From: a virus
Taxonomy: Duplodnaviria > Heunggongvirae > Uroviricota > Caudoviricetes
Virus record (IMG/VR): IMGVR_UViG_3300017987_005500
DNA: 64,000 nt
Reading direction: 5' to 3' (one strand)
Each line of letters opens with the position of its first letter. Position 1 is the first letter of the stretch. The notes beneath the pieces are model-generated. The model had not been told where the DNA came from. It searched no databases and saw only the letters and a list, made by a program, of their open reading frames with translations. A program made the position numbers and the translations under genes. Shown here in pieces: positions 44,869-56,316 of this stretch.

Positions 44869-44886
44869 CTATATATATTTCTTTAT
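44869..44886 (+). promoter_or_regulatory. Putative early promoter (TATATT[A/T]C class)
   Basis: ctATATATATTTCTTTAT upstream of the sigma-like gene; 14 of 16 positions match the 15741 motif. Confidence 0.5.
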
Positions 44887-44933: not shown

Positions 44934-46391
44934 ATGGAACTTGAGAAAAAAGAAGTTAAAAAATGGACTATTATTTTTGGAGATGGTTGGCAATTCGAGC
45001 TGGATTTAATTTCTAATTCAATTACAAACAAATTTCATATCATTGCAGATTTTTTGACATCAATGTCGGAATCCTGCGATGGTTTTGAAGAATGGTTAAA
45101 GACTTTTTTGTTTGCATATTCTGAAAATGCTGACTTGAGATTTGACCTTTTAAAAGACGCTGTCCCAGTAATTAAGAAATATGTAAATGAATACATTGAT
45201 CTTATAGCAACTGACTATGATAAATTTGTTGATGAGACAAAAGCAAAGAAGTCAAGTATTTTATTTAGAGCTCCTGAAATTAAAAGTATTATAATACTTT
45301 CAGGTTATTTGAAAGTATATGCTTTAATTTCAAATAGTGCTAATTTGAAATTAGATCAAAGACTTCATAGACAAATTTATAACTTATTTGCAGCTGATAT
45401 ATTAAAAACTGATATTGTCAGAAAAATATTCGACGTAGTAAAAACAAAGACATTTCGTTATAGTATAACCGACAGATATATGTGGGATTATATTAGGACA
45501 ATACAATGCAAAGAAATCGACGATCACATAATCGAGATATTCAATTTTATAATGAATAATATCTTAGCGTTATGTGAAAATGATAAAAATCCAATCATCT
45601 TCTTTATTGGGGTGATTGATGAATCTGTAAAATGGTTCTTGAGATCAGTCTATAAAGGAACTATTATTTATGAAGATAGCATGTCAACTGAAGATATTCA
45701 ATCTGCAAATATTGATAACTTGAGTGCATATTGCTATAACGATACATTGGGTCGATTGAAGGGTATTGCATATGAATTGATATATGAATCCTTGGAAGGA
45801 AAGAAAGGGGGAGTATTAACCTTTACGGACGAAAATGGAGAGGTTGGGACTGATAGCTATATCACAACATTTCAATCAAGAGTTATGGGTGTTGAGCATA
45901 TATCACCCTTATGTGAATGTATTGTATTTCCAGTTCTTTCAAAAGTATTGGATATTCCATATAGCTATTTCAAGACAATATCTCCAGAACATGCAGCTGT
46001 ATTATCAGTATATACTCATAACCTTTTAAAGAAGGTATTTAAAAATAATTTTAAGACATTAATATCAATGCTCCCATTTTACCCAAATGAGCAACCATCA
46101 TTATCAACAACATATGTCCTTAAGAATGTGAACACATATTTAAATCTATTTAATGAGACACAGGATTTCTTTGGATTTAAAAATAAGATATTCTTTCATA
46201 ATGTTCTTTGTCATTTTGTAGGAAGAGTATCAAGGATTGATTTTGTCCATGTTGTTGATGGAACTAAATTAGGTGGAATCCCATTAAGTAAAATTGAGGA
46301 AGATATGATAGAGTTCTTTATATCATTCTTCTCTGGGAATTTAGATGGTGAGTTTGAAGAAATGTCTAAAATAGCAAACTCTGATTTTTAG
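44934..46391 (+). CDS. Putative sigma-like promoter-specificity subunit (AR9 gp226 / phiKZ gp68-like)
   Basis: 485 aa, helical. Segments 'IVRKIFDVVKTKTFRYSITDRYMWDYI' and 'IMNNILALCENDKNPIIFFIGVIDESVKW' match my recollection of gp226 in order and spacing; lies 1.6 kb upstream of beta'/beta. Confidence 0.6.
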   Translation: MELEKKEVKKWTIIFGDGWQFELDLISNSITNKFHIIADFLTSMSESCDGFEEWLKTFLFAYSENADLRFDLLKDAVPVIKKYVNEYIDLIATDYDKFVDETKAKKSSILFRAPEIKSIIILSGYLKVYALISNSANLKLDQRLHRQIYNLFAADILKTDIVRKIFDVVKTKTFRYSITDRYMWDYIRTIQCKEIDDHIIEIFNFIMNNILALCENDKNPIIFFIGVIDESVKWFLRSVYKGTIIYEDSMSTEDIQSANIDNLSAYCYNDTLGRLKGIAYELIYESLEGKKGGVLTFTDENGEVGTDSYITTFQSRVMGVEHISPLCECIVFPVLSKVLDIPYSYFKTISPEHAAVLSVYTHNLLKKVFKNNFKTLISMLPFYPNEQPSLSTTYVLKNVNTYLNLFNETQDFFGFKNKIFFHNVLCHFVGRVSRIDFVHVVDGTKLGGIPLSKIEEDMIEFFISFFSGNLDGEFEEMSKIANSDF

Positions 46392-46407
46392 TTACCTTTT
46401 CATAAAT

Positions 46408-46424
46408 TAAGAACAAAAACTAAA
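46408..46424 (+). promoter_or_regulatory. Putative phage promoter, GAACA class
   Basis: TAAGAACAAAAACTAAA upstream of the operon containing the RNAP core genes. Confidence 0.6.
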
Positions 46425-46438
46425 TTAATGGAGCATAG

Positions 46439-47131
46439 ATGAGTTATCCTGAAAATCCAGAAACTATAGTATTGAAAAATAGATTTTACTCAAGAGGAAT
46501 GTCTGAGAAAAATTTATACGATTACTATCAAAAAATTCGAGGTCCTTTGATTGAACAAGTTAAGGGTCGCGATGTTATGTTTGCAATATTGGCAGGTTTA
46601 AATAAACCAATACTCAAACGAAAAGCTTCTGGAAAATTTATAATACTCACTCCATCAAATTATGATAAAATAATTACTGGAAGAACAATCTCTGTCTATT
46701 CCACAATGAAATATTATGAAGATATTGCCATTGTGGATATAGACGCAGATAATTTTGAACAAAGCAAACAACCAACTTTGGATGTTTATAACGCTCTTAA
46801 TGGAGCAAATTTTATAAGAGACCTTTCAATTCGTTACACGGGAAAAACTGGTTTTCATATTTTTTGCGAAATAGTAAGAAAAACGAAAATAGATAGTGCT
46901 AGACTTTTATTAGAGCAATATCTCTTAACTAAAAAAGAAGTAACATCGCAATATACAATAGCTGCTAAAAGAACAAAGGGAATTCCAAATATAGATTTAT
47001 GGGCATCAAATAAGAAAAATGGTGCTTTCATTAGTCTTCATTCTCTTTCTATAATAGGACTTAGATGTATGAAAGTTCAACCGACACAGTTACAATCTTT
47101 TAGACCAGAACAAGCGAGAATACGTTTTTGA
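46439..47131 (+). CDS. Stand-alone LigD-type primase-polymerase (AEP) domain
   Basis: 'NPE......G.SE..L..YY', 'VDID', 'TGKTGFHI', 'NID...N'. Confidence 0.75.
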   Translation: MSYPENPETIVLKNRFYSRGMSEKNLYDYYQKIRGPLIEQVKGRDVMFAILAGLNKPILKRKASGKFIILTPSNYDKIITGRTISVYSTMKYYEDIAIVDIDADNFEQSKQPTLDVYNALNGANFIRDLSIRYTGKTGFHIFCEIVRKTKIDSARLLLEQYLLTKKEVTSQYTIAAKRTKGIPNIDLWASNKKNGAFISLHSLSIIGLRCMKVQPTQLQSFRPEQARIRF

Positions 47132-47148
47132 AAGGTAAGGTGAAAAAA

Positions 47149-47592
47149 ATGAAAGAAATATTAATATTGACAGATGATATATCGAATTATGGCAAATACA
47201 GAAGTTTATTAGAAGATGCGAATGTTGAAATAAGTCATAGATCTTCAGAACTTGAAGCACTTAGACTTATTAGAGAAAAGGTTATTGATTTAGTTATTAT
47301 AGATTTAGATGTTCCTATATTTAAAATGAAAAATTTAAATGTAATAAAACATTTCAAATATAATACTGATGTTTTAAATATAGTAAATGACGTTAGCATT
47401 AAAGCAATTGAAGAATGTATTAAACTTGGTTTTGAACTTTTAAGAAAACCTTTTAAAAATGAATCACTTCTTTCTCATGTTAATAAAACAATATTTGGAG
47501 GAAGCGAGAATAATACAGATAACTTAATCACAATTGATGATTGTCTTGATGATAGTCCATTTTGTGATGGAGACAATTACGCGGAGGGTTGA
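47149..47592 (+). CDS. Single-domain response regulator receiver
   Basis: 'ILILTDD', 'DLVIIDL' phosphoacceptor, 'LRKPF'. Confidence 0.75.
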   Translation: MKEILILTDDISNYGKYRSLLEDANVEISHRSSELEALRLIREKVIDLVIIDLDVPIFKMKNLNVIKHFKYNTDVLNIVNDVSIKAIEECIKLGFELLRKPFKNESLLSHVNKTIFGGSENNTDNLITIDDCLDDSPFCDGDNYAEG

Positions 47593-47593
47593 T

Positions 47594-48028
47594 ATGGAAG
47601 ATCCAAGAGTTGAGAAACTTCAAGAGTTAGTTAGGAAAATGAACTCATTGATTTCCCCAATGAGCTATCATGATACATTAAAAGATTTAAGAACAAAACC
47701 TGCCGGTGAAGTGTTTAAAGGAAATGCAACAAAATGTATCATTCCATGGAAAAAGGGAGCTCAATTAGTACAAATTCCTATTTGTAATAGGATGGGAATG
47801 ATAGATCCTCAAATGATAGAGTTTGGTAAAAAGATGGTAAATAAAATGAGATCAGTGAGTCCTCAAGATGATAGTGGTGGAGCTGATATAATCATTGCCA
47901 AATTAGATAAATTGCATAAAAAGTATAGCAAAGATATTCCAAAACCATCTGATAGAGCTGCCCAACATGGACAAGTTACAAAATTCACAAATAAAATACT
48001 AAAGAATATTAAAGGACATTTAACGTAA
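47594..48028 (+). CDS. Basic hypothetical protein coupled to beta'
   Basis: GGAGG RBS; TAATG overlap with the beta' gene. Confidence 0.6.
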   Translation: MEDPRVEKLQELVRKMNSLISPMSYHDTLKDLRTKPAGEVFKGNATKCIIPWKKGAQLVQIPICNRMGMIDPQMIEFGKKMVNKMRSVSPQDDSGGADIIIAKLDKLHKKYSKDIPKPSDRAAQHGQVTKFTNKILKNIKGHLT

Positions 48029-51000
48029 TGTTAGATCTTTTAAATGTTAATGATTTCACAAAAGGACTTGATTTAATATCATCTACAGAGATCGCAACTA
48101 AAGATGGCGGATTTCATGTAAATGGATTATTCTCAGAGTCCATTTTTGGAACAGTAGGTTCCAATGAAAGACGAACAACATATGCTTATATTGATTTAGG
48201 AGCAAATGTAATTCACCCAACAATGATACGTTTTCTTTATAGACTTGATGGAAAAATAAAATCTTTTATATCAACTGAACATACATATGAAGTTGATAAA
48301 GAAACGGGTGAACTTGTCCAATCTCCTGATGGAGTTTCTGGTATAGCTGCTTTTATTAAATTGTTTCCAAAGATTAAATTCAATCTTGGAACTCCAGCAA
48401 GAGAAAAAATTAATGCCTCTGTTCAAGCTGCCTATAAAGATAAGTCTATTTTTATTAATAAACTTCCAGTTATTCCACCTGGTTATAGAGATGCTTATCA
48501 AGATGAATCTGGAGATTGGGTAGTTGATAAACTTAATGATTATTATATTACTATAATGAGGCGAGCTGTTAATGTAACAACATCATCTGGATCAGGTATT
48601 CTTTTTGATCTGATGAATTATGGTTTACAGCAAGCAGTCATTGATCATGATAAATATATCCAAACTCGTATTGCTAAAAAGTCTGGAATTATAAGAAGTC
48701 AAATGTTGGGAAAACGAATTGATTTTTCAGCTAGATCTGTAATTACACCAGGTCCTGACTTAAAAATTAATGAGATTGGAATTCCTTTAAGAATTGCAGC
48801 AACAATATTTGAACCATTTTTAATTCATCGTCTTTTATATTCTGGAATTGTTGATCAAGACTCATTATCTAAGGAAGTTGAAGAGTTTGTTGGAATTCCT
48901 CTATCTGTAGATAGTGTAAGAAAAGTCATTAAATCAATAAGAGTTGGTGATAAAATTCCTGAAGCATTATATAATATTTTTGCAGAATCAACCGAAGCTG
49001 TTATGCACGGAAGAGCAGTTATTGCAAAACGAGATCCAGCACTTCACGCAGAATCAGTAAGAGCATTTACTCCAATTTTAACTCATGGAAATAATGTACA
49101 AATATGCACATTGCAAGTAACTGGATTTAATGCTGACTTTGATGGAGATACAATGTTAGTTTGTCATCCTTTGAGTAATGAAGCTCAAGAAGAGATTCAA
49201 GAAAAAATGATGAAAGCTAAATCTGGTGAGTCATCAACTGCAATAACATTTGAATTAAATAAGGAAATGTATGTAGGACTTTATACAATAACGAAAGATA
49301 TTAAGTCCACAAAAGCAGCAATCGCTGTAACTGATAAAGATTTAGAAGATGCATCAAATCCTTATATTCCAGTAGTTTATAGAAAACAAAATACCACAAT
49401 GGGAAAAGCAATATTCAATAGTTGTTTTCCTCCCACCTTTCCTTATGTAAATAAATTGATAACCAAAAAAGTAGTTAATAAAATAATTGATGAATTATTT
49501 AAAAAATACGACGATGATATTGTTAGAGAATCCGTATCTAAACTTGCTAAAGTTGGTTTTAAATTTGCTACAATCATTGCCCCATCTATAAGTATTCAAG
49601 ACTTTGAACTTCCTCCAGCTATATATGAAATTAAAAAGAAACTTGATAAAGTTCCTATTGATGAAGCTCAAAGATTGTTAGATGATGCTCAAAAAATTCT
49701 TGCAAAACATCTTGAAGATACTGGGTTTCATGATTTGATAGAGTCTGGTTCTGGAAAAGGTTGGAGTCAACCAATGCAAATTCTTGTAGCGAAAGGAATT
49801 ATTGCTGACCCAGATGGAAATGTTTTAGAACCTATTAAGGGATCTTTCGCAGATGGATTATCAAATGAGGAATTTTATAATGCAGCTCCAGGTGCTATGA
49901 AAGGAATAATTGATAGAGTCCATAATACTGCTGAAACAGGATATTTATCAAGAAGATTAGCTTTTGTGCTTAATACAGTTGAAGCTGATCCTTATCTTAG
50001 AGATTGCAAAACTAAAAGAACTTTAAATCTTAAAGCAGAACCTGATTTAGTAAGAAGGATGGTAGGAAGATTTGTATTAAAAAATGGAAAACCAGTTTTA
50101 TTTGATCCCAATGATTTTAAAACAGGGGATTTAATTCAATTAAGAAGTCCGATATATTGTGAAAGTCCTAAGATTTGTTATACTTGCTACGGCGAACTAA
50201 TAAAGAGAGTTGGTTCCCCTTACATAGGAATTGTATCAGCTCAGATAATTGGAGAAAGAGGAACTCAATTAATTATGAGAACCTTCCATACAGGTGGAGC
50301 TACTAAAATAGATAAAAAAGATATGATCTCCGATATTATTGATGGGGACGCATTTGTAACAAAGGATGTTGTTAAATCTAAACTTAGACAAGAAGGTAAT
50401 TCATTAGTATGTTTAGATGATTGCAAAATAACTATAGGACTTAATAATTATGAATCTGAAGATGTTGCAATTAAAGAAGATGAGAATGTAGTTTGGTTAA
50501 GAAGCTTAATTTGTAATATAAGCTTTGAAGATACAGAATTCTCTATAATTCTTGATTATATTATAAATGTAAATATTATAAATGGAAATATAGAAGGTAA
50601 TGCAAAAAGTGAAGTAATTCAACTAAATTATCCAAAAGGCAGTACAATTTTAGAATGTACATTAGAGTCAATTGAATTGAAAAAACAAATTCAATTTATT
50701 GATAGACTTCTCAGCGGAAGGGAAATATATAAAAATACAGAACATGTATTTAGACGAATATTTAAAATATACCAAGAACATTCAGGAATGGATTTAGTTC
50801 ATTTAGAAGTTTTATTATCTAATTGTTTTAGATGGAAAGATAATTTAGCTTATCCTGCAAGACTTGGAAAAACATGGGATCCTGTCATGATTAATGTGAA
50901 GAATTTAGTTTTCAATACAGGGTTTGTAAATGGTTTGGCATTTGAAAATATTACAAAAGCTATTGAAATGGGATTAATTGCACAAGAAGATGTACCACCA

Positions 51001-51054
51001 TCTGTATTAGAGAAGGTAATGACAGGAACACTAATTGAGGAAACTAAAAAATAA
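48028..51054 (+). CDS. rpoC: Phage multisubunit RNA polymerase beta'-like subunit
   Basis: 'LGKRIDFSARSVI', 'RDPALH', catalytic 'NADFDGD', bridge helix 'TAETGYLSRRL', trigger loop 'GTQLIMRTFHTGG', Zn site 'C...RSP..C...IC..CYG'. Confidence 0.97.
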   Translation: MLDLLNVNDFTKGLDLISSTEIATKDGGFHVNGLFSESIFGTVGSNERRTTYAYIDLGANVIHPTMIRFLYRLDGKIKSFISTEHTYEVDKETGELVQSPDGVSGIAAFIKLFPKIKFNLGTPAREKINASVQAAYKDKSIFINKLPVIPPGYRDAYQDESGDWVVDKLNDYYITIMRRAVNVTTSSGSGILFDLMNYGLQQAVIDHDKYIQTRIAKKSGIIRSQMLGKRIDFSARSVITPGPDLKINEIGIPLRIAATIFEPFLIHRLLYSGIVDQDSLSKEVEEFVGIPLSVDSVRKVIKSIRVGDKIPEALYNIFAESTEAVMHGRAVIAKRDPALHAESVRAFTPILTHGNNVQICTLQVTGFNADFDGDTMLVCHPLSNEAQEEIQEKMMKAKSGESSTAITFELNKEMYVGLYTITKDIKSTKAAIAVTDKDLEDASNPYIPVVYRKQNTTMGKAIFNSCFPPTFPYVNKLITKKVVNKIIDELFKKYDDDIVRESVSKLAKVGFKFATIIAPSISIQDFELPPAIYEIKKKLDKVPIDEAQRLLDDAQKILAKHLEDTGFHDLIESGSGKGWSQPMQILVAKGIIADPDGNVLEPIKGSFADGLSNEEFYNAAPGAMKGIIDRVHNTAETGYLSRRLAFVLNTVEADPYLRDCKTKRTLNLKAEPDLVRRMVGRFVLKNGKPVLFDPNDFKTGDLIQLRSPIYCESPKICYTCYGELIKRVGSPYIGIVSAQIIGERGTQLIMRTFHTGGATKIDKKDMISDIIDGDAFVTKDVVKSKLRQEGNSLVCLDDCKITIGLNNYESEDVAIKEDENVVWLRSLICNISFEDTEFSIILDYIINVNIINGNIEGNAKSEVIQLNYPKGSTILECTLESIELKKQIQFIDRLLSGREIYKNTEHVFRRIFKIYQEHSGMDLVHLEVLLSNCFRWKDNLAYPARLGKTWDPVMINVKNLVFNTGFVNGLAFENITKAIEMGLIAQEDVPPSVLEKVMTGTLIEETKK

Positions 51055-54000
51055 TGAAGCAATATAAAGTCCTAAAACCTTATTCTCAGGTTTCTAAAAA
51101 ATTAAGTTTTAAATTGGAACGAGACAATCCGTACATTCTCTTTTATTTTCCAGAAAATACAACATTACTTGAAACATATCCTGCATTGGACTTAAGAATA
51201 ATAGATTTTAGGAATGTAATTGTTCCACTTACAAAAATTCCAAGAACTCGCTTAACATCTACATTGAAGAAATTATATAGATCATTAAAGTTGTATGCTA
51301 ATGGAACCAATGAAAAATATCCTGAGAATAAAAATTTAATATTTGATTATTCAACTTATTTAAGATCTATAGATGTTACATATAAACCTATAAGTTATAG
51401 ACAGCGAACAGGATTTTTGATTAAGAATTTATTTTTTATGACAGCTAATCAATTTCCTGAAAATTATAAAAAGATTTTATTGTACAATATTGTACTTGAA
51501 AATAATTTTGATCCAACGTTTGTAAATAGGAAATCATTTCCTATTGTTCAACAATTAAAAGATGAATCATTTCCTTTTGACGATCTTCTTCTTTGCATTA
51601 CTCATAATAATACATCTACGTTTAGACTTTTGGTCAGAGATAAAGAATTTTCTTTACCAAGGACTTTACAATATTTGAAAACTATTAAACCTATAAATGT
51701 TGAAGAAGAGGAAGAAAAAGAATTAAATGATGCATCTACAGCAGTAGCTAAAAAGATAGATGTAAAACCAAAAGATAAAAAGACTGTTAATGTTGCAGTC
51801 AATAATTATTTATCAACTTCTCCAGCTGACTTAGAAAAGATTTCAACTGGAAAAGCAACTAAAGCTGATGAAGAAAGAATAGCTGTTGCATCATTATTAT
51901 ATAGGACATCAGGAGATTTATCTAAAGCTAAAAAAATAGCAAATTCAATTCCTCCTAAAAAGAGAGCAATTGCATTAAAGAGAATTGATAAACAACTCGT
52001 TGATGAATTGATTCCACCTAAAGATTCTATAAACTTATCATCCGAAGTTGTTGTGCAATCATCTAATGTTCAAAAAGTAGTCGATAAAAAAACACCTGAA
52101 CACATATTTGAAAAGAGAAAAGTTGATTATAAAGTTAATCTCACAAAGGATATGGCAAATGCATTTAAGATGCTTGAAAATAAAGAAGTTCCTTTGAAGA
52201 TTGAAAAAATAAAAATAGTTGAGCAACCTGATAAACCAGGAGAGATTGACCCAACTGATAAATCAACAATTGAAGTTATGCTTAAAGATAAATCTGGAAC
52301 ATCTCATAAAATTGAAATTGATGTTCCAAGGATTAATCCAGAGACAGGAATATTTAGAGTATATGGACAAAAGAAATGTTTGATAAATCAAATTATTCAA
52401 TGTCCAATAACATTTCCTAAACCACATGAGTCACGATTTGAAAGTTCATATTCAAAATTTAGAATATGGGTTGTGATGACAAAAAGAATGAATTATCTTC
52501 ATTCATATATGGGTGGTTGTAAGATACCTCTTTTAATAATGCTCTCGTATTCATATGGTTTTGAAAGGACATTAAAACAATATGGAATAGGATATAAAAT
52601 AAGCGACATTAAACCAAGTAAGGACGCGAAATTTGCGATTAAAATAGATGATAGGTATATATATTTCACAAAAGTTGACACCCCATTAAAGGAGCAATTG
52701 GTTAACTCATTCATCTATGCAAAACCATCGAAATATAAGATTGATTATGAATTTGGAAGCAAGATGTATTTCAATGAATTAATAATAGCTATAACAGGAA
52801 GAATCAATTCAACATATTTAATTCAATCAAATCTTGAAAATATAGTAACACCTGTTGCTCATCAAGTTCTTGTTAATCAACAACTTCCTACACAACTTGA
52901 GCAAATAATGAAATATATGGCAACTAATTGTGTAGCTGGTAAAGAGATTAAGAGAAATGATTTAAGCAACCAAAGAATAAGAAATTCAGAAGTTATTGTT
53001 GATTTAGCTCAAAGTAGAATATTAGCTGCTTATACTGAGTATAAAGAGCAAATATTATCAGGAAACAATGACGCTGTATTCAATATTCCTAAAGGAGTTG
53101 TTTTAGCAGACTTTAATAAAATTGAAAATGTTCAAACAATGGAGTATGCAAATCCTCTTGAAGAAATGGCAACATTGTCAAGAGTAACTCCTGTAGGAAA
53201 AACGGTTGGAGGAATTCCTGATAAAAGAGCTATAACTGCGGATGCTTTAAATGTTGATAAATCTTATTTTGGAAATATTGATTTATATGACACACCAGAA
53301 GGTGAGAATATTGGAGTTGTTCAACAATTGACAGTTGATGCTCATATTACATCAGCAAGAGGTCTTTTCAAAACAATCCCACTTTCTAATAAAGAGAATG
53401 CAGGGCTTTTATCAACAACAACTTCAATGATTCCTTTTGTATCTCATAATGATGGGAATAGGATTATGATGGCGGCAAGTCAAGCAAAACAAATGCTTCC
53501 ACTTAAAAATCCAGAACCTCCAGTTGTTCAATCGGGATATGAATCATTGCTTACAAATACATTATCTGATAGTTTTGTAAAGAAGTCCCCATGCACAGGA
53601 AAAGTTGCATCAATTTCAAGAGATGCAATTACATTGGTATGCTCAAATGGAAAAAAGCAAACAATTGACACAACTCCTGTTCATCTTAAATCAGGTTCTG
53701 GAAAAGATACTTTAAGTGTATTTAATCCAACTGTTATTAAAGGACAAACTATAAAAAGTGGTAATGTACTTGCTGAAGGAAGTTGTATTTCTCAAGGAAG
53801 TATTGCTTTAGGTAGGACATTGCTTGCTGCAGTTATGCCATATAAAGGATATAATTATGAAGATGGTGTAACGATAAGCGAGACATTAGTTCATCAAGAT
53901 AAGTTAACATCTTTACATGGAATAATTGTAGAGGTAACTGTATCTGAAAATGATCGTTTAGTTTATATTTCTGAAATGGGTGATAAAACTAAAAAGGGTG

Positions 54001-55139
54001 AAACAATTCTCAGAAAGACAGTAGGTGAAATTGAGGAATTAATTGGTATTGATGATGATGAAGATTCAACTGATATTTTAGCTGGACAACTTATCAAGAA
54101 AAGTCCAGGTGGAACAATTGTTGACATTGAAGTATTTTCAAATATGACAACTGATAAATTTCCTCAACTTAAATCATTAATTTCAAGAACAAGAAAGAGA
54201 TATAAAAACCCAACTAAGAAATTTTTGATTAAAGGAAGAAGCATTAATGGAATGTTGATAAGATTTAAAATAGAACAAGAACTTCCAATTGGTCTTGGCG
54301 ATAAACTTGCTAATAGACATGGTAATAAAGGTATTGTCTCATTAGTTGAAAAAGAAGAAAATATGCCAAGGACTCCGTGGGGAGATAGAGTTGAAATTGT
54401 ATTAAATCCTCTTGGAATTATTGGAAGAATGAATGTTGGTCAAATTTATGAATTGTATTGTGGATTAATCGGCAGAGAACTTGCTAAAAAATCAATCTCA
54501 TTAAATTCAAAATCAAATGTAGTTAATTTATTTAAAGCTATATTATCTCAATTAGATAATACAAAAGATAAACAATTTAGCTCAGATTTTATTAAAAATT
54601 TAAGAGGTCTTAACAGAGCAAATTACAATTTAATGTTAGAGCAAATGAAAAAGACAGGATTCGCCCCAATCGTAGTTCCTCCATTTCAAACTCCTACTTA
54701 TAAAAATATTCTTGCAGCAATGAAAATGTTAGATCTTAAACAAGGATATAAACTTTATTTGCCTGACTATAATACAAAAACGAATTATGAAGTTCCAGTT
54801 GGTTATCAATATATTACAAAACTTGAACATATGGGTGAAGCAAAACTACATGCTAGATCCACAGGACCCGTTACTTCAAAAACATTGCAACCGACTGCAG
54901 GAAAGAGAAGCGAAGGTGGTCAGAGATTAGGCGAAATGGACACATATTCATTTCTTTCATATAATGCGACAAAAACATTATCTGAACTTATGGGTCCTAT
55001 GAGCGATGATATCGTGACCAAAAATGAAATGTTATCTGAAATAATTCAAACAGGTCAAGTTGAATATAAACCAACTAAAACTTCACCGGTAAGGGATCTA
55101 TTAAATGCTTATATGGTTGCCCTTATGCTAGGAAAGTAA
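51054..55139 (+). CDS. rpoB: Phage multisubunit RNA polymerase beta-like subunit with long N-terminal extension
   Basis: 'DTPEGENIG', 'HNDGNR..M', 'GYNYEDG', 'GDKLANRHGNKG', 'LNPLG...RMN.GQ', 'HARSTGP', 'GGQRLGEMD'. Confidence 0.97.
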   Translation: MKQYKVLKPYSQVSKKLSFKLERDNPYILFYFPENTTLLETYPALDLRIIDFRNVIVPLTKIPRTRLTSTLKKLYRSLKLYANGTNEKYPENKNLIFDYSTYLRSIDVTYKPISYRQRTGFLIKNLFFMTANQFPENYKKILLYNIVLENNFDPTFVNRKSFPIVQQLKDESFPFDDLLLCITHNNTSTFRLLVRDKEFSLPRTLQYLKTIKPINVEEEEEKELNDASTAVAKKIDVKPKDKKTVNVAVNNYLSTSPADLEKISTGKATKADEERIAVASLLYRTSGDLSKAKKIANSIPPKKRAIALKRIDKQLVDELIPPKDSINLSSEVVVQSSNVQKVVDKKTPEHIFEKRKVDYKVNLTKDMANAFKMLENKEVPLKIEKIKIVEQPDKPGEIDPTDKSTIEVMLKDKSGTSHKIEIDVPRINPETGIFRVYGQKKCLINQIIQCPITFPKPHESRFESSYSKFRIWVVMTKRMNYLHSYMGGCKIPLLIMLSYSYGFERTLKQYGIGYKISDIKPSKDAKFAIKIDDRYIYFTKVDTPLKEQLVNSFIYAKPSKYKIDYEFGSKMYFNELIIAITGRINSTYLIQSNLENIVTPVAHQVLVNQQLPTQLEQIMKYMATNCVAGKEIKRNDLSNQRIRNSEVIVDLAQSRILAAYTEYKEQILSGNNDAVFNIPKGVVLADFNKIENVQTMEYANPLEEMATLSRVTPVGKTVGGIPDKRAITADALNVDKSYFGNIDLYDTPEGENIGVVQQLTVDAHITSARGLFKTIPLSNKENAGLLSTTTSMIPFVSHNDGNRIMMAASQAKQMLPLKNPEPPVVQSGYESLLTNTLSDSFVKKSPCTGKVASISRDAITLVCSNGKKQTIDTTPVHLKSGSGKDTLSVFNPTVIKGQTIKSGNVLAEGSCISQGSIALGRTLLAAVMPYKGYNYEDGVTISETLVHQDKLTSLHGIIVEVTVSENDRLVYISEMGDKTKKGETILRKTVGEIEELIGIDDDEDSTDILAGQLIKKSPGGTIVDIEVFSNMTTDKFPQLKSLISRTRKRYKNPTKKFLIKGRSINGMLIRFKIEQELPIGLGDKLANRHGNKGIVSLVEKEENMPRTPWGDRVEIVLNPLGIIGRMNVGQIYELYCGLIGRELAKKSISLNSKSNVVNLFKAILSQLDNTKDKQFSSDFIKNLRGLNRANYNLMLEQMKKTGFAPIVVPPFQTPTYKNILAAMKMLDLKQGYKLYLPDYNTKTNYEVPVGYQYITKLEHMGEAKLHARSTGPVTSKTLQPTAGKRSEGGQRLGEMDTYSFLSYNATKTLSELMGPMSDDIVTKNEMLSEIIQTGQVEYKPTKTSPVRDLLNAYMVALMLGK

Positions 55140-55140
55140 A

Positions 55141-55752
55141 ATGCAAAATGAACAGCAAAATTTAAAGACTTTATGCGACATTATTGACCCAGAACCATCC
55201 GGAGACGATGATCGAGATACCCAATATGACGTTGGGGTTGTATTTTCTGACCAATATGATTTATTAGAAATTCATACTTATTTTGGATTAGATGAATTTA
55301 TGGAGATTTATACATCTACAATAAATGGAGTAAGACAGCAAGAATTACAAATTCAAGCAACTTTATGTAGTCTGTTATTAGAAAAAATTGAAAATGTATA
55401 TGATTTTTCATTTGACACTCATATCACTTTATTAAGGCAGAGGGATCTCGATAAAGTATATGATTTAGCGGAATTTCTTCAATATAATAATCTTAAATTT
55501 ATAACAGGAATTTGGAAATCCTTTGGGTTAAAGAATATTGTATCATTAGATGTAGAAGATTTCTTCACTTCAAATAAAGATAATTTCCAAAAGTTAATAG
55601 AACAAATAACAAATAGATCATTAATGTATAGTAAAGATTCACTTATCAACCATTTTCTAAACATTTGTAACAAAGAAATATCATTATTTATGATAACACA
55701 AATGACGAATAAGTGGAGAATTGAAATTTCTGCGAATTTAATGAAAGGATAA
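55141..55752 (+). CDS. Hypothetical protein directly after beta
   Basis: 203 aa, starts 1 nt after the beta stop codon. Confidence 0.6.
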   Translation: MQNEQQNLKTLCDIIDPEPSGDDDRDTQYDVGVVFSDQYDLLEIHTYFGLDEFMEIYTSTINGVRQQELQIQATLCSLLLEKIENVYDFSFDTHITLLRQRDLDKVYDLAEFLQYNNLKFITGIWKSFGLKNIVSLDVEDFFTSNKDNFQKLIEQITNRSLMYSKDSLINHFLNICNKEISLFMITQMTNKWRIEISANLMKG

Positions 55753-55756
55753 AATT

Positions 55757-56017
55757 ATGGCAGCTGAAGAAGATAGTGTAGTAATTAAAAAAGGACCAGT
55801 TACAATAAATTGTTTTCGGAGCGATTTAATTATGGTTGATCAAACACCTGACGGAGTTGTTATTAATTTGAAGGGTGGACTTGCTTTAAATTATACAGAT
55901 CAATATATGGAAATTGAAACCAAAGAAAGAATAAAACAAGCTGTAAATCATATGGCAGGGAACTTAGAAATCGATCTTGGCAATCGAAGAACCCCAGCAA
56001 GAATTTTGGGTAAGTAG
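55757..56017 (+). CDS. Hypothetical protein
   Basis: 86 aa with AAGGA RBS. Confidence 0.6.
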   Translation: MAAEEDSVVIKKGPVTINCFRSDLIMVDQTPDGVVINLKGGLALNYTDQYMEIETKERIKQAVNHMAGNLEIDLGNRRTPARILGK

Positions 56018-56044
56018 TCCTTGTTATATATATTTATATTTAAT

Positions 56045-56163
56045 AATAAGAACTAGTTGCTCGGTATTCCTTATGGAATGATGTGACAAGATCTTATTTT
56101 ACCGCCTCTATGCAGGTGGGTTTCTTAGGGAGAGTGGACATTATGTCTGCTCTCCCAACTTTT
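56045..56163 (+). ncRNA. Candidate structured RNA (three hairpins, the last terminator-like)
   Basis: GC-enriched intergenic island after TATATATATT (56025). Stems: 56045-56098 (interrupted), 56102-56119, and a 13-bp stem 56128-56156 with two G-U pairs followed by AACUUUU. Confidence 0.5.
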
Positions 56164-56245
56164 AAAACAATTTAAAACTTTTTTGCGCTTAAATTTAAAA
56201 CAACTTTTAAAACAACTTTAGGAAAACTTTTAATGAACTTTTTAA
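56156..56245 (+). repeat. Low-complexity AACTTTTAAAAC-like repeats
   Basis: caacttttaaaacaa, tttaaaacaacttttaaaacaacttt, aaaacttttaa, gaactttttaa; similar units at 56886-56925. Confidence 0.65.
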
Positions 56246-56316
56246 TTTATTTGTACGTCTTTAGAAAAAATGTTATATCTATATCCTACGTAATTTTGAA
56301 TTTAACGAGGTGAATT

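Follow-up and report, generated by a model that had tools for sequence, protein, structure and literature searches.

[quoted passage not shown] This raises the question of which polymerase the factor serves. The features on which the analysis is based are the following, all on the + strand:

44869..44879, +: early-type promoter-like motif CTATATATATT, 55 nt upstream of the factor gene
44934..46391, +: gp226-like sigma-like factor, 485 aa, with profile, hhalign and AlphaFold/Foldseek matches to gp226
46409..46431, +: late-type promoter-like motif AAGAACAAAAACTAAATTAATGG (AACA-N5-TA), heading the polymerase operon
46439..47131, +: 230-aa ORF, first in the operon, with a weak likeness to NHEJ/AEP polymerase (5dmu_A, E 1e-3)
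47149..47592, +: stand-alone response-regulator receiver-domain protein, 147 aa (PF00072, E 4.8e-9; NCBIfam receiver-domain matches)
47594..48028, +: 144-aa orphan ORF coupled to beta', candidate accessory subunit
48028..51054, +: beta' of RNAP set 1, 1008 aa, unsplit, with Pfam Rpb1 domains 2, 3 and 5
51054..55139, +: beta of RNAP set 1, 1361 aa, unsplit, with Pfam Rpb2 domains 3, 6 and 7
55141..55752, +: 203-aa orphan ORF after beta, position conserved
55757..56017, +: 86-aa orphan ORF, position conserved (46% identity in G001, 32% in G002)
56024..56119, +: operon end with an early-type motif (56024), AAGAACT (56048) and a terminator-like hairpin (56102-56119)

A preliminary description of this DNA had reported complete single-chain genes for both core subunits, translationally coupled in the order beta'-beta, and the ORFs, the Pfam domains and the 1-base overlap between the two genes bear this out. 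The motif NADFDGD occupies residues 368-374 of the 1008-aa beta', which precedes beta in the operon. For the long N-terminal region of the 1361-aa beta a Pfam search gave no match. Stop and start codons share one base at 48028 and again at 51054, pointing to translational coupling, and a single base separates the end of beta (55139) from the start of the 203-aa ORF (55141). The reported lack of an alpha gene was likewise confirmed for the window: among the 29 window proteins scanned we detected no alpha domain, and no sigma70 domain either.

The remaining genes of the operon were compared with those of related genomes. The 230-aa ORF has a counterpart in G001 (47% identity) and is missing between the factor and beta' in G002, while the receiver-domain gene is kept in G001. 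The 144-aa ORF is always located directly 5' of the set-1 beta' in the relatives (orthologues in L013, G001, G002 and G003). It could not be assigned to a family by searches of Pfam, PHROGs, NCBIfam and the ESM Atlas, and a Foldseek search with its AlphaFold model (pLDDT 72.5) found no fold match. The 203-aa ORF is found at the same position in relatives with 33% identity in G001 and 26% in G002; searches of the same four resources gave nothing usable. Because their positions beside set 1 are kept in relatives, the ORFs at 47594 and 55141 stay candidate partners of the set-1 core. An Rfam search of the gap at 56018-56316 returned no family.

The 485-aa protein had been likened to gp226 of phage AR9, and this likeness proved correct. 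A profile of the 77-member factor family matched 7S01_A (gp226) in the PDB over its full length (residues 14-454, E 3.9e-7). In the AR9 genome the gp226 gene was the only match of the family profile (E 4.4e-10), and hhalign of the factor family against gp226 gave a probability of 95% (E 4e-8). The three ordered blocks of similarity named before (factor residues 109-132, 161-187 and 206-234) lie within the HMMER and hhalign alignment with gp226. Identity between the factor and gp226 is only about 11-18%, and the family profile is needed for detection: the factor alone retrieved neither gp226, gp68 nor any other relative by phmmer against the PDB or by tblastn against 50,697 phage records. The profile had no match in phiKZ, Rhizobium phage RHph_Y65, Fusobacterium phage JD-Fnp1 or Cobetia phage Carin-5, and gp68 gave no sequence signal to the factor, even when a profile was compared with the sequence. 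Among Pfam, PHROG and NCBIfam families, including sigma70 region 2 and region 4, the factor matched none. Its family comprises at least 145 clusters at 50% identity, with a single factor gene per genome.

Comparison of structures led to the same relatives. The AlphaFold model of the factor has a pLDDT of 90.9; confidence is low in a linker (residues 244-257). In the Foldseek search the top three matches were gp226, gp226 and gp68, and the next match had an E of 0.8; the resemblance to gp226/gp68 suggested in the preliminary description was thus found, and that to sigma domain 2 is weak (VIA Z 4.8-5.8 at factor residues 105-241). VIA gave a Z of 21.1 across 409 residues for the factor model against gp226 (7S01_A). 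The C-terminal domain of the factor reached a Z of 9.3 to 7UM1_A and superposed on the corresponding domain of phiKZ gp68, the fifth nvRNAP subunit (PDB 8QUE chain B), with a Z of 9.1 and an rmsd of 3.6 over 161 residues. In the model, the linker joins a larger N-terminal domain, which includes a sigma-2-like region, to a gp68-like C-terminal domain. AR9 gp226 (PDB 7S01/7UM0/7UM1 chain A) has 464 aa compared to 485 aa, the same two-domain fold and an alignable sigma-2-like region. We conclude that the factor is a true homologue of AR9 gp226 in sequence and in predicted fold.

In AR9 the 2.1bis helix of gp226 and the core jointly recognize the -10-like element of the template strand: I207, W208 and Y210 contact this element and V206 enforces uracil specificity (residue roles from PMC9209446). 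The 2.1bis-like helix of the factor comprises D180-Y186, and no other segment of the family is as strongly conserved. According to the profile alignment, from which this register is taken, gp226 D204, W208 and Y210 correspond to factor D180, W184 and Y186, and I207 corresponds to M183. The helix would thereby keep the D, the W and the G-stacking Tyr of gp226, and within the family D180 and W184 each reach a conservation of 83%. The uracil position (gp226 V206) is occupied by Tyr182 in the factor; about half of the family members have Tyr or Phe there. Judged by its sequence, the factor should therefore be kept out of the uracil-specific gp226 subgroup.

Beyond the window, about 32 kb downstream on the same contig, there is another unsplit beta'/beta pair (set 2), with single ORFs of 898 and at least 1018 aa. 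It was reached by walking along an ENA contig identical to the window; the preliminary description had overlooked it. A scan of genome contigs with a lone beta' sequence gave no match, and an alignment query was then used for the contig scan in place of the single beta'. The relatives G001-G003 likewise carry two beta'/beta sets.

In reciprocal sequence comparisons with AR9, the set-1 beta' matched the virion beta'N with an E of 6e-29 and the non-virion enzyme with 1.6e-12. In phiKZ the values were 1.6e-23 for gp180 (virion) and 2.6e-4 for gp55 (non-virion). The set-1 beta aligned over a long stretch with virion gp178 of phiKZ and with two exons of the virion beta of AR9; the sequence matches of the beta subunits agree with the orthology of beta', more weakly. 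In a maximum likelihood tree the phage clade was separated from 16 bacterial sequences (support 100/98). Set 1 was placed with the AR9/phiKZ virion RNAPs (100/99) and set 2 with the AR9/phiKZ non-virion RNAPs, the latter with moderate support (92/80) and with very long AR9 and phiKZ branches. An AU test against a clade of set 1 and the non-virion RNAPs gave a p-value of 0.033, for a hypothesis named after the tree had been seen. By sequence, set 1 groups as orthologous to the virion RNAPs and set 2 to the non-virion RNAPs of AR9/phiKZ. As the preliminary description had anticipated, beta and beta' are unsplit and fall outside the bacterial clade, among phage enzymes. The complete 277-kb relative G001 yielded neither an alpha nor a sigma70 domain, sigma70 region 2 included, and encodes a Gp23-type capsid protein (PF07068, E 8e-35).

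The factor gene and the polymerase operon bear different promoter-like motifs. The early-type pattern YTATATATATW occurs 4 times in the window, always on the + strand, compared to 1.33 expected occurrences, and the same early-type motif is located 5' of the factor gene in L013, L014, L015 and L016. The copy before the factor gene of the window, CTATATATATT, resembles the annotated AR9 early promoters, AAATATATATTAT (AR9 promoter consensus sequences from PMC7598289), and in AR9 as well an AT-rich early-type motif precedes the factor gene. The late type has the general form AGAACA-N5/6-TA and is AR9-like: late promoters of AR9 read AACA-N6-TA, and here we find the AACA core with N5/6-TA spacing. 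The late promoters of phiKZ (TATG at the start site) differ from this motif. AGAAC[AT] in sense orientation is present in 9 of 18 non-coding gaps compared to 1.6 expected (p 5e-5), and L013 and L016 have the late-type motif in the corresponding position. Window-wide AAGAACWNW is not enriched (37 versus 25 expected); the signal lies in placement and orientation in the gaps. For sigma70-type promoters there was no enrichment. The early/late scheme suggested by these sequences is not clean, since a GAACAAATTAAAT motif is located just 5' of the set-2 operon and AGAACA motifs also occur 5' of nucleotide-metabolism and recombination genes.

Taken together, these data bear on the proposal of the preliminary description that the gp226-like protein serves the neighboring core as its specificity subunit and forms with beta' and beta a minimal three-subunit holoenzyme. 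This part of the description found no support in the form proposed. The adjacent core groups with virion RNAPs, whereas gp226 and gp68 are described as subunits of the non-virion RNAP in AR9 and phiKZ (PMC7598289), so the pairing of the factor with set 1 is probably wrong. Since set 1 looks like the virion-carried type, the likely partner of the factor is set 2, about 32 kb away. Gene arrangement speaks in both directions. The factor gene is closely linked to set 1 in the window, where it sits 1.6 kb upstream of beta', and in L013 and G002, where only the 144-aa ORF (128 aa in G002) lies between factor and beta'. Such linkage is of the kind expected of partners and counts against pairing with set 2. 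In G001 and G003, however, the factor gene is 10-15 kb away from set 1, and in the window it is preceded by an early-type motif of its own and separated from the operon by a late-type one. The clamp and flap regions are kept in both sets, so that a sigma-like factor could dock on either. A complex prediction for residues 1-470 of the set-1 beta' with the factor returned a score of 0.00 ("no answer") and counts neither way. Overall we regard a holoenzyme of the factor with set 1 as unlikely.

To a related explanation we assign a similarly low probability: one sigma-like protein could serve both cores, or a different polymerase at different times. The presence of one family member per genome, the linkage to set 1 of a gene orthologous to the partner of set 2, and the occurrence of AGAACA-type motifs before many kinds of genes are all in line with a shared factor. 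We found no precedent for it in the AR9 or phiKZ papers, however, and the two clearly distinct motif classes suggest two specificities. It is very improbable that the protein has kept the gp226 fold for another role, e.g. as a virion or assembly protein of the neighboring baseplate module. Its gene does follow directly after hub, PAAR and lysozyme-like genes, and the protein is unusually conserved (>50% identity across hundreds of metagenomic clusters), but conservation in the family peaks precisely in the DNA-reading 2.1bis-like helix, AACA motifs like those of AR9 occur and the factor gene has its own early-type motif.

We therefore favor, with a probability of roughly 0.6, the reading that a T4-like jumbo-phage lineage (Gp23 capsid) here carries the phiKZ/AR9-type two-polymerase system in unsplit form. 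In such a system set 1, perhaps together with the 144-, 203- and 86-aa products, would be made late and packaged. After injection set 1 would transcribe early genes from CTATATATATT-type promoters, the gp226-like gene being one of them. The factor would then join the set-2 core and direct it to AGAACA-N5/6-TA promoters, one of which would head the set-1 operon. On this reading, transcripts should begin either at the TATATATATT motif or 5-8 nt 3' of the AACA core.

The system proposed here shares several features with phiKZ- and AR9-like jumbo phages: two paralogous beta'/beta sets per genome, by orthology one of the virion and one of the non-virion type, the lack of alpha and sigma70, and two promoter classes. 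As is the case for the factor here, the gene of phiKZ gp68 is near RNAP genes. In those phages beta' and beta are each distributed over 2-3 polypeptides, often scattered and intron-bearing, whereas here each is one gene and the two are adjacent and coupled. Compared to AR9, the differences are the unsplit partner cores, the Gp23-type capsid lineage and Tyr182 instead of V206. The unsplit beta/beta' outside cellular clades and the Gp23-type major capsid protein are in turn shared with the metagenomic tailed phages of the mReC group (Weinheimer and Aylward 2020, PMC7481178), a likeness at the level of features. The text of the mReC paper does not contain sigma, phiKZ, split or "two copies" (PMC7481178), and its tree omits the RNAPs of jumbo phages because of long branches (PMC7598289).

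According to a 2020 review no phage virion RNAP had so far been purified, and whether a duplication or independent captures gave rise to the virion and non-virion enzymes is held there to be undecidable (PMC7598289). Of Chimalliviridae and Straboviridae it has been written that they "may have convergently acquired" the enzyme (PMC11835377). The gp226 homologues form a widespread family, which occurs in genomes with one unsplit virion-type and one unsplit non-virion-type set. The family links both phage groups via a common accessory subunit and promoter logic, and thereby the question of origin becomes testable. Unsplit cores should be easier to express than those of the AR9 and phiKZ enzymes, which consist of four or five separate polypeptides, and could serve to study how promoters are read on the template strand, as well as the virion enzyme, which is uncharacterised. 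We see even odds that the lineage preserves the ancestral, unsplit apparatus of phiKZ/AR9 (virion and non-virion RNAP, gp226-like factor and both promoter classes) in combination with a T4-type capsid. If this is true, a two-gene core would be on offer for the virion RNAP, the genes would have been split only after the virion/non-virion duplication and after the factor had been recruited, and the mReC and Chimalliviridae/AR9 RNAPs would share one origin rather than being convergent acquisitions.

The gene for the 485-aa protein (44934-46391), which the preliminary description had likened to the specificity subunits AR9 gp226 and phiKZ gp68 and which we call the factor, lies downstream of a baseplate block in a phage-like window of 30% G+C. 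All the ORFs claimed earlier exist as described. Downstream of the factor gene come ORFs for a 230-aa product and a stand-alone receiver-domain protein, next a 144-aa ORF that is coupled to beta', and then the unsplit beta' and beta genes, in that order; stop and start codons share one base at 48028 and at 51054. We refer to this pair as set 1 and to a second unsplit pair, located about 32 kb downstream and outside the window, as set 2.

39114: gp5-like hub, baseplate block upstream of the factor gene
43994: PAAR protein, same block
44328: lysozyme-like gene, same block
44934-46391: factor, 485 aa
48028-51054: beta' of set 1, 1008 aa; Pfam Rpb1 domains 2, 3 and 5; NADFDGD at residues 368-374
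51054-55139: beta of set 1, 1361 aa; Pfam Rpb2 domains 3, 6 and 7
Roughly 87.4-93.1 kb (window-equivalent): set 2, beta' of 898 aa and beta of at least 1018 aa

Proteins identical to those of the window are encoded on contigs that reach 308 kb. One contig that is more than 99% identical (L003 8313-12198, JGI 3300005264) carries a 200-nt deletion within the set-1 beta gene (window beta nt ~1757-1956), flanked by short repeats; the frame is broken into ORFs of 587 and 666 aa. Either the variant is defective or the deletion is an artefact of assembly.

When used alone, the 485-aa protein retrieved no relative at all, gp226 and gp68 included, whether by phmmer on the full set of PDB chains (E cut-off 10) or by tblastn against 50,697 phage records. 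It belongs to a large, uncharacterised family of metagenomic proteins of ~480 aa: at 90% identity the scored candidates form 554 clusters, and at 50% identity there are at least 145 representatives. A family profile, A1, was built from an alignment of 77 full-length members with 17-55% identity. Its sole significant match in the PDB was 7S01 chain A (464 aa; E 3.9e-7), colinear over residues 14-454, with the runner-up at E 0.17. This chain is gp226, as it is part of 7S01, 7UM0 and 7UM1, all entries of the AR9 holoenzyme, and is unlisted for the core-only entry 7S00. In a six-frame search of the whole AR9 genome A1 matched a single place (E 4.4e-10), annotated “non-virion RNAP subunit”, and hhalign against gp226 gave a probability of 95% (E 4e-8) covering gp226 residues 113-268. 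Since the correction for composition in the HMMER score is large (bias 65 bits), independent structural evidence was sought.

The AlphaFold2 model of the factor obtained with A1 has a pLDDT of 90.9, with a low-confidence linker at residues 244-257. Foldseek against the PDB returned AR9 gp226 twice (E 4.7e-6 and 2.3e-5) and then phiKZ gp68 (8QUE_B, E 1.3e-3); all remaining matches had E >= 0.8. In VIA-align the model reached Z 21.1 against gp226 across 409 residues, with a high global rmsd, as expected of two domains joined by a hinge. Aligned by itself, the C-terminal domain gave Z 9.3 and rmsd 3.8 to 7UM1_A, and Z 9.1 and rmsd 3.6 to gp68. Bacterial sigma-2 regions ranked lower (Z 4.8-5.8, factor residues 105-241). 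The model mirrors the published layout of AR9 gp226: a sigma-2-like core in the N-terminal domain, a finger-like linker and a C-terminal domain (PMC9209446). Profile, hhalign and predicted structure thus uphold the proposed likeness to gp226, and the three sequence blocks on which it was based all fall within the gp226-aligned region of the A1-PDB and hhalign alignments, in the register described.

Both alignments place gp226 residues D204, V205, V206, I207, W208, T209 and Y210 of the 2.1bis helix opposite D180, R181, Y182, M183, W184, D185 and Y186 of the factor. D180 and W184 are each 83% conserved in the family, the top values in the tabulated stretches (172-192 and 214-224) if the N219-P220 pair is set aside. 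In AR9 gp226, I207 acts as a wedge at the -10 base, V206 excludes thymine and Y210 forms a stack with the -9 G (PMC9209446). As the factor has a Tyr (Y182) at the position of V206, uracil dependence cannot be inferred for it.

The adjacent beta' and beta had been proposed to form one holoenzyme with the factor. This is probably wrong. Walking along an ENA contig that carries identical versions of the window's proteins led to set 2, and each of the related IMG/VR genomes G001, G002 and G003 has a single gp226-like gene together with two unsplit beta' genes (~1005 and ~905 aa); G001 (277 kb, terminal repeats) is rated complete. Set-1 beta' matched the AR9 virion beta' N-part at 6e-29 and the non-virion one at 1.6e-12, and phiKZ gp180 (“structural head protein”) at 1.6e-23 and gp55 at 2.6e-4. 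For set-2 beta' the AR9 order is reversed (non-virion 1.7e-19, virion 1.6e-5), and among phiKZ proteins it matched gp55 and gp74, with no match to gp180. In a maximum-likelihood tree of the N-terminal part of beta' (32 sequences, 495 columns, LG+C20+F+G4) the 16 bacterial sequences stand apart from all phage ones (support 100/98). Set 1 groups with the AR9 and phiKZ virion sequences and with one from a Fusobacterium phage (100/99), and set 2 with the two non-virion sequences (92/80). Constraining set 1 to the non-virion sequences was 15.2 log-likelihood units worse (AU p 0.033, a post hoc test on long branches). Set-1 beta gave long alignments with phiKZ virion gp178 and two AR9 virion beta exons, and the best match of set-2 beta was the C-part of AR9 non-virion beta; judged by these matches, the beta subunits agree, less sharply, with the orthology of both sets. 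As gp226 and gp68 both belong to non-virion enzymes (PMC7598289), set 2 would be a likelier partner for the factor than any other, the adjacent set-1 genes included.

The 144-aa ORF lies directly 5’ of set-1 beta' in all relatives examined, and the window's 203- and 86-aa ORFs have counterparts after beta in G001 and G002. None of the three had a family match, and the model of the 144-aa product, the only one predicted, had no fold match; by their synteny they are credible candidates for partners of the virion-type core. G001 has both the 230-aa ORF and the receiver ORF; G002 has neither. The former ORF (46439-47131), first in the polymerase operon and 47% identical to its G001 counterpart, weakly matched an NHEJ/AEP-type polymerase (5dmu_A, E 1e-3, residues 91-178) and would be a primase-polymerase-like gene co-transcribed with an RNAP. 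The receiver ORF (47149-47592; 30% identity in G001) is a response-regulator-type receiver domain without an output domain. Past the window's end (L145 14355-17326), two ThiF/E1-like genes immediately precede set 2 and belong to its gene string.

G001 has a Gp23-type capsid protein, and neither sigma70 region 2 nor an alpha subunit was found in it, which matches the mReC phages, RNAP-encoding Caudovirales known from metagenomes (PMC7481178). The text of that paper mentions none of sigma, phiKZ, split or “two copies”. Homologues of gp68/gp226 have been stated for jumbo phages with split subunits, and the origin of virion and non-virion RNAPs has been called unresolved (PMC7598289); a 2025 paper suggested convergent acquisition for Chimalliviridae and Straboviridae (PMC11835377). 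We found no published link between a gp226 homologue and unsplit polymerases within an incomplete coverage of the literature. The cultured Fusobacterium phage JD-Fnp1 (ON464759; L024 9004-11796, L030) has an unsplit 930-aa beta', annotated “subunit alpha”, which falls in the virion-type clade, and a separate 485-aa beta'-N-like ORF; a profile search detected no gp226-like gene. Cobetia phage Carin-5 (PV155638; L025 7925-14750) also has an unsplit RNAP but a different solution to promoter specificity, with an annotated sigma-factor gene directly 5’ of beta' and beta. A set-2-type beta' or a gp226-like protein is also encoded on contigs assigned to Thermoplasmatales, Pacearchaeota or Thermoplasmata archaea (L034, DAOVGR010000079.1; P0008; P0118); these contigs probably stem from phages and were mis-binned into archaeal MAGs.

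Sigma70-type promoters showed no enrichment. Of 18 non-coding gaps, 9 contain AGAAC[AT] in sense orientation, where the genic rate would predict 1.6 (p 5e-5), and the motif is rare in antisense; the sites read AACA-N5/6-TA, near to AACA-N6-TA/G, which is the late consensus of AR9 (PMC7598289). One AGAACA-type site lies at 46409, between the factor gene and the polymerase operon, and at the same position in loci L013 and L016. YTATATATATW is present in four copies in the window, all on the + strand (1.33 expected), one of them 55 nt 5’ of the factor gene, as also in L013, L014, L015 and L016, and another directly after the polymerase operon; it also occurs 5’ of the operon leading into set 2. 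Annotated AR9 early promoters read AAATATATATTAT, and one fronts gp226 itself. This placement agrees with a programme like that of AR9, with the factor as a presumed early gene and set 1 as a presumed late one. The pattern has exceptions: a GAACAAATTAAAT motif also fronts the operon of set 2, and AGAACA sites are found ahead of ribonucleotide-reductase and recombinase genes. Past the window's end, the stretch between the two RNAP sets holds PTPS (QueD-like) and radical-SAM genes (L143 13930-14982, L144 15189-16214). They hint at a 7-deazaguanine-type DNA modification which, if present, could affect how promoters are read at the G within AACA/TTGT.
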